From Candidatus Fraserbacteria bacterium (GTDB lineage Bacteria > Bipolaricaulota > Bipolaricaulia > RBG-16-55-9 > DRXL01), in contig JBBIUX010000004.1 in the NCBI GenBank assembly GCA_037440025.1, positions 4,290 through 68,289 on the forward strand: a DNA stretch of 64,000 bases, given 5' to 3'. Below the pieces are notes generated by a model. The model was not told the origin of the DNA, did not search any database, and saw nothing but the letters and a program-made list of their open reading frames with translations. Position numbers and translations under genes: made by a program. Below are positions 41,869 to 44,800 of the stretch, piece after piece (positions within the stretch are counted from its first letter, which is position 1; each line of letters opens with the position of its first letter).

Positions 41869-44800
41869 ATGCCAAAGTACGAGAAGTTGCCGGACCCATT
41901 GGCGCTCGAAGCGTCTGTTCTAAAGTTTTGGGAGCAGGCCGCCATTTTTGAAAAGAGCCTGCAACAGACCAAAGACAAAAAGCCCTACGTCTTCTACGAA
42001 GGGCCGCCCACGGCCAATGGGAAGCCCCATGTGGGGCACTTGATGGCCCGCGTCAACAAAGACCTCTTTCCCAGATATTGGACGATGAAAGGGTATTACG
42101 TCCTGCGCAAGGGCGGCTGGGATACGCACGGCCTGCCCGTCGAACTTGAGGTCGAAAGGAGCCTGGGGCTGCAGAGCAAAGCCGAGATCGAAAAGCTCGG
42201 CCTAGACAAATTCGCGCAGAAGTGTAGAGAGAGCGTCTGGCTCTATAAGAGCGAGTGGGAGCGATTCATCCAGCGCATGGGCTTCTGGATCGACCTCGAA
42301 CATGCTTATATTACTTATACTAATGAGTACATCGAGAGCGTGTGGTGGGCGCTGAAAAGAATTTGGGAGAAAGGGCTGCTCTACAAGGGGCACAAAGTCT
42401 TGCCCTACTGCCCGCGCTGCGGCACCGCGTTAAGCTCGCACGAAGTTGCTCAGGGCTACGAGACTGTCAAAGACCCGTCTATCTTCTTCAAGTTACGAGT
42501 CCGGGACCTAACCACCTTGCCCCCTTCCCTGAAGGGAAGGGGAGATTCCCCTCCCTCTTTAGGGGAGGGGCTGGGGGAGAGGTCAGTGGGGAGGGAGAAC
42601 TGTTACTTTCTCGTCTGGACAACAACTCCTTGGACAGTGCCCAGCAACGTGGCGCTCGCCGTGGGACCCAAATTCACCTATGCGAAAGTCAAAGTCGGAG
42701 ATGAGACGCTCGTTCTCGCTCAAGACTTGGTGGAACAAATTCTGGGAAAGCAAAGCTATGAGATCGTGAGCATAGTGAAGGGCTCTGAGCTGGTGGGCTG
42801 GCGCTACGAGCCCGCCTATAAGCTCAGCGACGCCCCCGGCGCCTATCGAGTGGTCGCTGCGGATTTCGTCTCGCTTGAAGACGGGACAGGGATTGTTCAT
42901 ATCGCCCCGGCGTTCGGCGAAGAGGACTATCAGCTGGGGCAGAAAGAGCAGTGGCCCTTTGTCAATCCCGTAGATTTGGAGGGCAAGTTCACCCAAGACT
43001 TCCCCTTGGCCCAAGGCCAGTTTGTCAAAGATGCTGATGCAACGATCACGCAAGATATGAAGCGGCGCGGCGTGCTCTATAAATCTGGGAAATACGAGCA
43101 TGAGTACCCCTTCTGCTGGCGGTGCAAGGCCCCATTGCTCTACTATGCGCTCGACTCGTATTTCATCAAAACGACGGCCAAACAGAAAGAGATCGTCGCA
43201 AATAATAAAGGGATTCACTGGCACCCGGAGCACATGCGCGATGGGCGCTTTGGGAACTTCTTGGAGACGATGAAGGACTGGGCGCTCTCGCGGGATCGCT
43301 ACTGGGGAACACCGCTGCCCATTTGGATCTGTGACAACTGTAAAGAACAAGTCTGCATCGGCAGCCGCGCCGAGCTTGTCGAGCACGCCAAAGATAAACA
43401 GCTCGCGCAGACAGTCGAGTTTCACCGCCCCTGGGTAGATCGAGTCATGCTCGCGTGCCGCAAGTGCCGGGGCGAGATGAAACGCGTGCCCTATGTGATT
43501 GACACCTGGTTCGATTCGGGGATGATGCACACGGCCCAGTGGCATTACCCCTTCGAGAATCAAGAACTCTTTGAAGAACAATTTCCGGCGGATTTCATCG
43601 CCGAAGGCGTCGACCAGACGCGCGGCTGGTTCTACACGCTCTTAGTCACCAGCACACTGCTCTACGAAGAGAAGCCCTATCCCCACCCTTTCCGGCATGT
43701 GGTCGTAAACTTGATGGGGTTGGATGCCCAAGGCCGCAAGATGAGCAAGAGCTTAGGAAACGTACTCGACCCGTGGGAGCTGATCAATCGCTTTGGCGCG
43801 GACGCCGTGCGCTGGTATTTTTATTCTTCCAGTGCTCCGTGGAAAGACAAGCGCCTCTCGCTGCAAGGAGTGGCAGATTTTCAAGGGCCGCTGGAGACGC
43901 TGCGCAACGTCTATAGCTTCTTTGCGCTCTATGCGCGGATTGACAAGTTCGATCCGGCCCTCACCCCGCCCTTCGGCCACCCCGCTCCCGCAGCTCCGGG
44001 AGAGGGGCGAGGGGTGAGGGCCTTGCTCGACCGTTGGATTCTCTCGCGCTTGCAAACGACCATTCAGAGCGTCACGTCGTGTATGGATGACTATGATATT
44101 GTGGGAGCTGCCGATGCGCTCAAAAGTTTCGTGGATGATTTGAGCAATTGGTATGTGCGCAACTCCCGCGCGCGCTTTTGGGGCAATGAATGGACAGCCG
44201 ACAAGACCGCTGCGTTCACCACGCTCTATGAAGTCCTGCTCGATCTGTCGAAGCTGTCCGCGCCCTTTGTGCCCTTCTTAGCTGAGGCGATCTATCAAAA
44301 CTTGAAGACCGCAGAGATGCCGGGGAGCGTCCATCTGTGCAACTGGCCGCGGGCTGATGAGCAGTTGCGCGACGCGAGCTTGGAAGCCCAGATGAAGCGC
44401 GCACGCCAGATCGTCACGGCTGGGCTGCAGGCGCGTAACAAAGCGCAAGTCAAGGTGCGCCAGCCTCTCTCTGTGGCTGCCGTGCTCGCTAACCGTCCTG
44501 CGTTCGACCACGGGTATCTGGAACTGATCGAGCAAGAATTGAACGTCAAGCAGCTCGAATGGATCGGTGAAGAAAAACTCTTTTCGTTCTACACGCCGAA
44601 GATCGAATATGACAAGTCAGCGTTGGGAAAGGATTTCAGAGGCTTGGCTCCCAAAGCGATTGGCGTTTTGGAGCAGCTCAATCAGAGTGAGCATGAGAGA
44701 CTCGTACAGTTAGCGCAAGAGCTTCGTCGGGCGAAGAAGTTGCGCCTGAGTATAGAAGGCCAAGAAGTTGAACTGCTCTGGGAGACCCATGTGCGCGTGG

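Follow-up and report, generated by a model that had tools for sequence, protein, structure and literature searches.

The gene for isoleucyl-tRNA synthetase (IleRS), ileS, in a 64,000-nucleotide (nt) stretch of the Candidatus Fraserbacteria contig JBBIUX010000004.1 (positions 4,290 to 68,289; the whole stretch is called the window here) carries two in-frame segments that are likely to be copies of a dispersed, modular family of GC-rich nested palindromes, which landed in tolerant loops of the enzyme and have been passengers there ever since. In sequence, the family resembles the Escherichia coli repeats known as BoxC, PIT or TMECO. An initial annotation of the window, made from its letters, had placed two element copies in frame in ileS, just before the WTTTPWT and LDRWILSRL blocks. 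The palindromic DNA, the repeat matches in the window and the gaps opened against a solved IleRS structure all agree with this placement, and the ileS observation as a whole is confirmed as real and well supported.

Position and architecture of the ileS inserts

The ileS open reading frame (ORF; 41851–45150, + strand) is uninterrupted. An upstream in-frame ATG at 41851 would give a protein of 1099 amino acids (aa), and translation from the homologue-supported start (Table 1) gives a product that is identical to the NCBI-called protein P0362; the NCBI gene call spans both inserts. Thus, the gene is continuous, as annotated, although its product has 1093 aa rather than the 1094 first given. The nearest database relatives are Candidatus Bipolaricaulota (Acetothermia) proteins, and the best solved relative is 8c8v (IleRS2; HMMER E-value 1e-285). 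Exact look-ups of the window IleRS and of protein P0241 returned no record.

The peptide of insert 1 (PPSLKGRGDSPPSLGEGLGERSVG) occupies aa 224–247 (nt 42520–42591), with WTTTPWT 8 residues downstream, and that of insert 2 (LTPPFGHPAPAAPGEGRGVRA) occupies aa 704–724 (nt 43960–44022), with LDRWILSRL one residue downstream. The HMMER alignment to 8c8v is broken into two stretches at query residues 219/247 (site 1) and shows a 13-residue gap at site 2. Both inserts are therefore extra sequence relative to solved IleRS structures, and they are extra relative to close orthologs as well, which bears out the view that they lie between blocks that are contiguous in other IleRS; the length of IleRS is generally variable at both sites.

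Insert 1, here termed E5, is a composite repeat in which a leader (GACCTAACC) is followed by two hairpins, CCCCTTCCC-TGA-AGGGAAGGGG (42521–42542) and CCCCTCCC-TCTTTA-GGGGAGGGG (42549–42570), and then by the G blocks GGGGGAGAGG and GGGGAGGG. Insert 2, termed E6, is a nested palindrome laid out as GCCCTCACCCC...CCCCGCTCCCG-CAGCTC-CGGGAGAGGGG-CGA-GGGGTGAGGGCC, in the order C-block, G-block, G-block. Element ends are inverted repeats (GGCCCTCACCCC/GGGGTGAGGGCC and GACCTAACCCC/GGGGAGAGGTC). Both fold strongly as single strands, with −55.8 kcal/mol (z −2.2) for insert 1 and −52.2 kcal/mol (z −4.8) for insert 2. Three to four of the six frames of each element are free of stops, and more than one frame is in use: the E5 DNA that reads PPSLKGRG..SPPSLGEGLGERS in ileS reads PFPKGKG..LPSLFRGGVGGEV in porA, the gene for the alpha subunit of pyruvate:ferredoxin oxidoreductase. 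The unit lengths (66, about 84 and 114 nt) are multiples of three. A terminator scan found no terminator-like site at either ileS insert, and an Rfam scan of the whole window at gathering thresholds and a tRNA scan gave no match.

The position of the inserts in the folded protein was assessed with an AlphaFold2 model built from the ortholog alignment (mean predicted local distance difference test score, pLDDT, 75.9). The model places both inserts in low-confidence loops between strands or helices, and its segments with pLDDT below 50 include aa 222–247 (insert 1) and aa 709–720 (insert 2). Insert 1 is modelled as the tip of a beta-hairpin (strands 203–217 and 251–257) that leads into the CP1 editing domain, and insert 2 as the loop between helices 679–697 and 725–746, at the start of the anticodon-binding helical domain. 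The model thus suggests that both inserts are exposed loops that leave the fold undisturbed.

Copies in the window, at orthologous sites and in other genes

Eight copies of the repeat (E1–E8) were counted in the 64 kb, at least four of them in frame within genes (Table 1). A 21-mer probe taken from insert 1 had 3 matches in the window and an 18-mer probe from insert 2 had 5, against 0.00 and 0.04 expected from shuffles. A repeat finder paired insert 1 with 51094–51162 (96% identity over 45 nt and 96% over 23 nt) and insert 2 with 4708–4754 and 51057–51086, and assigned E5 to its families D5 and D7 and E6 to D6, I6 and I12. E6 resembles E2, E3, E4 and E7, and shares with E2 both its length and its build. 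The porA copy, E7, joins the two types: outer arms of the E6/E2 type enclose a loop that holds the two E5 hairpins, and E5, which is 93% identical to it, corresponds to the inner part of E7 plus the right outer arm. E1 is 64–70% identical to the E5-type copies, and E8 is probably a decayed copy, judging by its sequence.

Table 1. Coordinates of ileS, of the repeat copies in the window and of related features at other loci (locus names precede the positions where these lie outside the window).
Feature	Position	Strand	Remarks
ileS, type-2 isoleucyl-tRNA synthetase	41869..45150	+	1093 aa; homologue-supported start MPKYEKL
Insert 1 (E5), composite repeat in ileS	42505..42597	+	translation DLTTLPPSLKGRGDSPPSLGEGLGERSVGRE
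Insert 2 (E6), 66-nt nested palindrome in ileS	43957..44022	+	translation ALTPPFGHPAPAAPGEGRGVRA
E1, intergenic	1345..1450	-	between gdh and Lon-like gene; leader ACCTAACT; families I3–I5
E2, intergenic 66-nt copy	4690..4755	.	best-kept E6-type palindrome; families D6, I8; −58.2 kcal/mol (z −7.0)
E3, intergenic E6-type copy	6663..6785	.	unrelated second hairpin nested between G blocks; families I17, I22, I24, D3
E4, in frame in ccsA	28826..28882	+	coding sequence about 28738–29862; translation SSPHPAPSPLRGERWGER
E7, 114-nt (38-codon) composite in porA	51057..51170	+	coding sequence 50010–51308; −83 kcal/mol (z −4.2)
E8, probable decayed copy (..GGGCAGGGCAGGGTGAGGGCC)	60876..60916	+	peptide SVREDGAGQGEGQ; within 1189-aa LptF/G-domain ORF 59161–62730; family I17
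birA (adjoins ileS) with E5-type insert	L123:3435-4229, L128:13183-14010, L124:3933-4715
Second palindrome family, AGTCCAGACGAAGTCTGG/GGGGCGTATGGCCATACGCCCC	L002:10628-10702, L002:12038-12085, L124:2707-2808, L116:1689-1706
DUF559 ORF flanked by repeats	L054:1-800	-

The history of the ileS sites was followed in an alignment of 36 Bipolaricaulota IleRS orthologs and in a neighbour-joining tree made without the insert columns. The two sites are the main length-variable spots of this alignment. Site 1 has 42 nt in the insert-less locus L128 versus 120 nt in the window, and site 2 has 45 nt in the insert-less loci L125, L126 and L128 versus 78 nt in the window. Related genomes do hold alleles that lack the inserts, as the initial annotation proposed to check: L001 (96.5% nt identity) is without E5 and has a short unrelated hairpin at site 1, with E6 present, and L002 (91.6% nt identity) is without either insert, with a different small palindrome in place of each. 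E6 is also missing from L125, L126 and L128. The inserts recur in independent assemblies, E6 in L001 and the E5 type in L124 and L125. In L123, an E5-type module lies at site 2 and not at site 1, within E7-like outer arms.

On the tree, the state at site 1 is patchy. The window carries the repeat and its nearest relative, P0001, does not; P0013 carries it and its sisters P0020 and P0022 have nothing; P0028 retains the element ends only (QPNPPEKLGERS); and P0002–P0004 have a second palindrome family (..RHANSPDEVW) at this site. This second family, unrelated to the first (AGTCCAGACGAAGTCTGG, also GGGGCGTATGGCCATACGCCCC; peptides like ..HSPDEVW), is likewise dispersed, with copies at ileS site 1 in L002, at ileS site 2 in L124 and at an unrelated place in L116, and none in the 64-kb window. 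Both ileS sites are recurrent indel hot spots, patchily filled by two repeat families among the Bipolaricaulota orthologs.

Once in place, a copy of the E6 type changes faster than silent sites. E6 and its L001 counterpart differ at 13 of 66 nt and at 8 of 22 residues, whereas ileS outside the inserts differs between the window and L001 by 2.7% overall and by 5.5% at third positions. The inner stem is disrupted in both lineages, in one arm in the one and in the other arm in the other, and no compensating change restores the pairing. E5-type copies are 85–95% identical to each other whatever the site, gene or genome (E5 itself is 85–91% identical to the ileS copies of other genomes), and the ileS third positions of the genomes that carry them are just 50–56% identical. 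Because the copies are far more alike than the third positions of their hosts, recent copying, gene conversion or a constraint on the DNA is needed; old copies left to drift freely would not look like this.

Genes other than ileS also contain in-frame copies. In porA, E7 is an exact block of 38 codons (peptide ALTPDPSPGPNPTPFPKGKGLPSLFRGGVGGEVRGVRA) that none of four orthologs has. In ccsA, which encodes a cytochrome c assembly protein, E4 lies in the loop between transmembrane segments 1 and 2; it is missing from the ortholog P0242, which is 90% identical, and further ccsA orthologs have different peptides of the same repeat kind at this position, which makes this loop a third hot spot. Several Bipolaricaulota birA genes have inserts of the E5 type, in frame, that separate NDLYV from R..KLGG (IRPNPLSPSLKGRGVSPPALGVGE is one example; Table 1), and L127 and L128 have a second, small birA insert near the C-terminus; the window birA (45147–45881) has neither. 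The mutL gene of L114 carries ALTPPCGHPSPVGHYGRGVGGEGLA. This contig (CAYYOG010000002.1), which has the same repeat peptides, is labelled "uncultured Thermotogae bacterium", a label that may be wrong.

The distribution of the repeat extends well beyond this lineage. A scan with GGGAGAGGGGNNNGGGGTGAGGGC, with one genome per species, matched at least 120 contigs, and the matches listed belong to Chloroflexota, Armatimonadota, Planctomycetota, Cyanobacteria, Acidobacteriota, Nitrospirota, Proteobacteria, Verrucomicrobiota, Gracilibacteria and Bipolaricaulia. Among the matches listed, 46 of 150 exact motif copies lie in stop-free stretches (at least 60 open codons on each side), versus 233 of 351 random positions. 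By eye, the genuine genes with an internal repeat peptide encode leucyl-tRNA synthetase (LeuRS; L041), HypF (L045), an SNF2 helicase (L117), a DNA methylase (L109), a CHAT/NB-ARC protein (L094) and MutL (L114). Long motif-bearing ORFs of L004, L065 and L098 and on the minus strand of L085 and L086 look like spurious antisense frames in high-GC DNA and were not counted as intragenic. The ACCTAACC-led module of insert 1 was found on at least 120 metagenome contigs, and at least 19 of the 133 metagenome copies of the E5-type module listed lie in long ORFs, which is a lower bound because many of the contigs are short. In-frame insertion of this kind had been called rare outside Rickettsia, which is too strong given the copies in porA and ccsA of the window, in birA and mutL of Bipolaricaulota, and in LeuRS, HypF, SNF2 and methylase genes of other phyla.

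Some further features were noted around these copies. A different hairpin, GAAGCGTTTTGGTGC..GCACCAAAACGCTTC (loop TTTTTTCAGAAA), is nested in E3 at 6716–6775, with partial relatives at 3606–3640, 24187–24210 and 62357–62391; it may represent a second small repeat family. E2 and E3 space three successive PKD/VWA-domain genes (3945–8931, - strand), which have a 79-nt direct repeat in common with 38585–38663 (family D1). In the ORF that contains E8, the Pfam match (LptF/LptG permease) is confined to the first 366 of 1189 residues, and so long a C-terminal extension is unusual. Two glutamate dehydrogenase paralogues (61–1386, - strand; 55062–56339, + strand) lie ~54 kb apart in inverted orientation, with 71% complementarity along 424 nt (the inverted repeats I1 and I2). 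Upstream of ileS in L125 (L125:1-635), a V-type ATPase A subunit of 1141 aa contains intein-splicing and LAGLIDADG domains and is thus an example, from the same lineage, of another kind of selfish in-frame insert.

Proposed origin and alternatives

The proposed family has a core of CCCTCNCCC, a loop, GGGAGAGGG, 2–3 nt and GGGTGAGGG, which would often be closed by a matching CCCTCACCCC arm and sometimes joined to the ACCTAACC-led two-hairpin module. Copies would have landed in, or been copied into, two tolerant loops of IleRS. Since each block consists almost wholly of purines or of pyrimidines, several frames are stop-free, and together with the unit lengths this means that a copy in a tolerant loop keeps the gene open. 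Such a copy would then be translated as a Pro/Gly/Ser/Leu/Glu/Arg-rich, probably disordered surface loop. Copies that broke the frame or the fold would be removed by selection, leaving those at loop sites and with in-frame lengths, and we infer that the restriction to few loop sites reflects selection against other landings. As passengers, the remaining copies would change faster than the gene, lose their interiors or be replaced.

The copying step is a guess, made with low confidence. A hairpin or recombination route would be favoured over cut-and-paste by a DDE transposase, since no target-site duplication was seen and no transposase was found among the Pfam-scanned genes of the window (nine proteins). 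Such a route could be single-strand hairpin insertion like that of REP/RAYT systems, a switch of template where forks stall, or ectopic gene conversion between copies. Target-site duplications were sought by eye, in comparisons of filled with empty sites, with none at E2, E3, E6, E7 or the copies of L123, L124, L125 and L127.

Several points weigh against this account. The surface exposure of the loops stands on a model with a mean pLDDT of 75.9 and not on a tRNA-bound structure, and both the translation of the inserts by the ribosome and their harmlessness are presumed. Copies at the same site in L124, L125 and the window, whose proteins are ~25% divergent, are nearly as alike as paralogous copies, contrary to the decay expected of a neutral passenger; their likeness needs recent independent insertions, gene conversion or a constraint on the DNA sequence. 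Neither site retains its native loop residues, which indicates replacement and not clean insertion. All E5-type copies that can be oriented, including the intergenic E1, run with transcription, although the sample is small and partly non-independent. This common direction may reflect selection or mechanism, and the proposed explanation does not account for it. Finally, no mobilising enzyme for the repeats was found among the window genes scanned.

The same data could reflect one ancient insertion per site, followed by vertical descent, ectopic gene conversion and occasional deletion or overwriting, with no repeated insertion. At site 1, the left and right junctions hardly differ between the window, L124, L125 and L127 (..ACCTAACC ... 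GGAGAGGTC..), and at site 2 those of the window, L001 and L123 agree (GATCCG, followed at the junction by GCCCTCA..). In addition, P0028 resembles an internal deletion of a P0012-type insert, and the copy of the window is set off from that of L124 by 1-nt and 2-nt indels that compensate each other, as descent with change would predict. However, site 1 of L001 holds a short hairpin of unrelated sequence in spite of the 96.5% identity, the sites are filled by an unrelated repeat family in other lineages, sister taxa differ in state, and a copy is as close to its paralogous copies as to those at the orthologous position. We regard single ancient insertions as unlikely on balance, though a serious competitor. 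It is improbable that the inserts are kept for a function, whether as a DNA triplex or cruciform that acts on replication or transcription, as a very stable mRNA hairpin that slows the ribosome at a domain boundary and so helps folding, or as a new binding loop. Their sites at domain boundaries (the entries to the CP1 editing domain and to the anticodon-binding helices), their very stable folds and the 85–95% likeness of element sequences across diverged genomes would fit such a role. Yet close relatives manage without the inserts, the frame in which one and the same DNA is read differs from gene to gene, 8 of the 22 residues of E6 have changed between genes that are 97% identical, its stem mismatches being uncompensated, and an unrelated family is found in the same loops. 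There is also no terminator-like site at the inserts, and earlier work on the PIT elements of E. coli, as related in PMC4666352, found neither promoter nor terminator activity.

Three further explanations have far less in their favour than the proposal of repeat copies in tolerant loops. That the inserts are ordinary lineage-specific IleRS sequence, GC-rich and palindromic by chance, would agree with the length variation of both sites in IleRS generally, but it is very improbable in view of the near-identical DNA in porA, ccsA and intergenic DNA of the window (0 expected) and of the at least 120 genome and at least 120 metagenome contigs with matches. Equally improbable is an artefact of assembly, through a chimeric contig or a repeat mis-joined into ileS: the assembly is metagenome-derived and short repeats can confuse assemblers, but neither insert shifts the frame, the left and right flanks are each collinear with orthologs, and assemblies from other samples have E6 (L001) or an E5-type insert (L124, L125 and L127) at the same codon positions. 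The idea that the mature protein is formed without the inserts, after their removal by an intron-like, intein-like or ribosome-bypass route, comes from the strong RNA hairpins only, and nothing was found in its favour. With no Rfam match, only 22–31 codons without intein blocks, no in-frame stop that would need a bypass and a gene that is open throughout, removal is the least probable of all. Inserted repeat copies, retained as passengers, remain the likely explanation of both segments.

DUF559, BoxC and other known systems

In 3 of the 120 genome loci listed, an ORF for DUF559 (a Vsr-like PD-(D/E)XK endonuclease) lies directly between or beside repeats. In L041 (L041:576-3689), a cassette of repeat, DUF559 and inverted repeat is in frame within LeuRS; in L100 (L100:2480-3300, - strand), a DUF559 cassette is in frame within an HsdM-like methylase gene, which also has a second, solo repeat; the third locus is listed in Table 1. 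The association was followed with a DUF559 query restricted to the core free of repeat peptide, among the best 120 homologues, which are close and cyanobacterial. In this set, 35 of the 120 closest homologues have a hairpin-repeat peptide within their last 40 residues, one has it in the first 40 and none in the core; in control windows the count is 0 of 390. A tblastn search of the window and of Bipolaricaulota loci with a total of about 120 kb gave no DUF559 match. These sequence associations make DUF559 a candidate partner enzyme for the repeat class.

It is tempting to propose, tentatively and with considerable doubt, that BoxC/TMECO-type repeats are pan-bacterial mobile hairpins that insert in frame in permissive loops of essential proteins, at sites that are hit repeatedly, with DUF559 as a possible autonomous partner. 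If so, these repeats would be a general and overlooked source of loop insertions. The ileS case alone is of moderate interest, and it gains more as one case of what a very widespread repeat class seems to do more widely, apparently without having been described. In the open-access literature searched, we found no description of translated copies of the BoxC-like class, and nothing relevant on the repeat peptides (GEGLGVR, GRGAGGEG), on Bipolaricaulota repeats or on DUF559 together with repeats; within that literature, the BoxC/PIT/TMECO repeat and the intragenic palindromes of the Rickettsia style are two known things newly joined here. If the pattern holds genome-wide, part of the protein length variation in Bipolaricaulota, Chloroflexota, Planctomycetota and others would be repeat DNA and not adaptive evolution, and Pro/Gly/Glu/Arg-rich "low-complexity" loops could be spotted as such and masked when proteins are aligned, placed in phylogenies or modelled. 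The reused sites would then provide a natural map of insertion-tolerant loops in IleRS, BirA, PorA and CcsA, and the DUF559 association would offer a testable candidate for how the repeats spread, a question that has stood since BoxC was described.

In-frame intragenic copies are also a feature of the coding palindromes of Wolbachia and Methanocaldococcus. [quoted passage not shown] Likewise, repetitive extragenic palindromes (REPs) and REPINs, which are mobilised by the IS200/IS605-like RAYT transposases, are short palindromes that are dispersed intergenically, frequently as inverted pairs, and leave no target-site duplications. The ends of the window elements, however, are without the GTAG/CGTC tag (compare PMC3733652), and REPs are extragenic by definition. 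No RAYT was found among the nine window proteins that were Pfam-scanned, a scan that included no search aimed at RAYT genes.

Rickettsia palindromic elements (RPEs), to which the inserts were originally compared, are about 150 bp long, have a conserved peptide per family and lie in frame in unrelated housekeeping genes, where they are translated as part of the host protein, judged to be fold-compatible, variably present among relatives and unusually frequent (PMC10969869). The window elements behave alike in being short palindromes in frame in unrelated housekeeping genes (two sites in ileS, porA and ccsA, with birA and mutL elsewhere), in occupying loop sites and in varying between relatives. 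In contrast, their units are 66–114 nt long and GC-rich and use at least two frames, which sets them apart from the elements in the RPE descriptions. Thus, the likeness to RPEs holds for in-frame, fold-compatible and variable insertion, but does not seem to extend to kinship, given the BoxC core and the ACCTAACC-led module.

TMECO is the name given to the G/C-rich motif CCCTCNCCC-N3-6-GGGNGAGGG-N3-GGGNGAGGG, in which a single mismatch is allowed (Holder et al. 2015, PMC4666352), which the same paper, citing prior work by Bachellier and Hoyne/Maher, equates with the earlier BoxC and PIT element. According to that study, TMECO forms an intrastrand triplex in vitro, occurs 3610 times in 262 proteobacterial genomes, has no link to any mobile-element gene and marks indel differences between E. 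coli strains; all 23 copies of E. coli K-12 are intergenic (PMC4666352). The strict pattern has no match in the window at up to one mismatch, one at two mismatches and three at three. It fails because the stems have 10–11 nt and the loop lengths differ, and not because the blocks are different. With a relaxed pattern (loop 1 of 3–10 nt, loop 2 of 1–6 nt) and at most one mismatch, E2, E4 and E6 match, compared with none in 50 shuffles. In pairwise comparison with E. coli TMECO no. 12 (sequence from PMC4666352), identities are 32/36 for the ileS site-1 insert of L127, 31/37 for E4, 32/41 for E2 and 31/42 for E6. A BLAST search of E. coli genomes with E2 returned no match, which is likely due to the short query and the low-complexity filter.

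The likeness to BoxC/PIT/TMECO covers both build and behaviour. The blocks CCCTCTCCC, GGGAGAGGG and GGGTGAGGG come in the same order with short loops, and insert 2 and four other window copies bear this core of C-block, G-block and G-block. In both systems inverted pairs often form one long palindrome, many copies are dispersed with no associated transposase seen, and the sites show local indel instability between close relatives. The differences lie in location and composition. Unlike the BoxC copies of E. coli, which are all intergenic, E4, E5, E6 and E7 are in frame within ccsA, ileS and porA; some window copies are joined to the ACCTAACC-led two-hairpin module; and the host belongs to Bipolaricaulota. 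On sequence, the resemblance could come either from common descent or from convergence on a triplex or hairpin shape, and as far as the evidence goes, the window family appears BoxC-like and not RPE-like.

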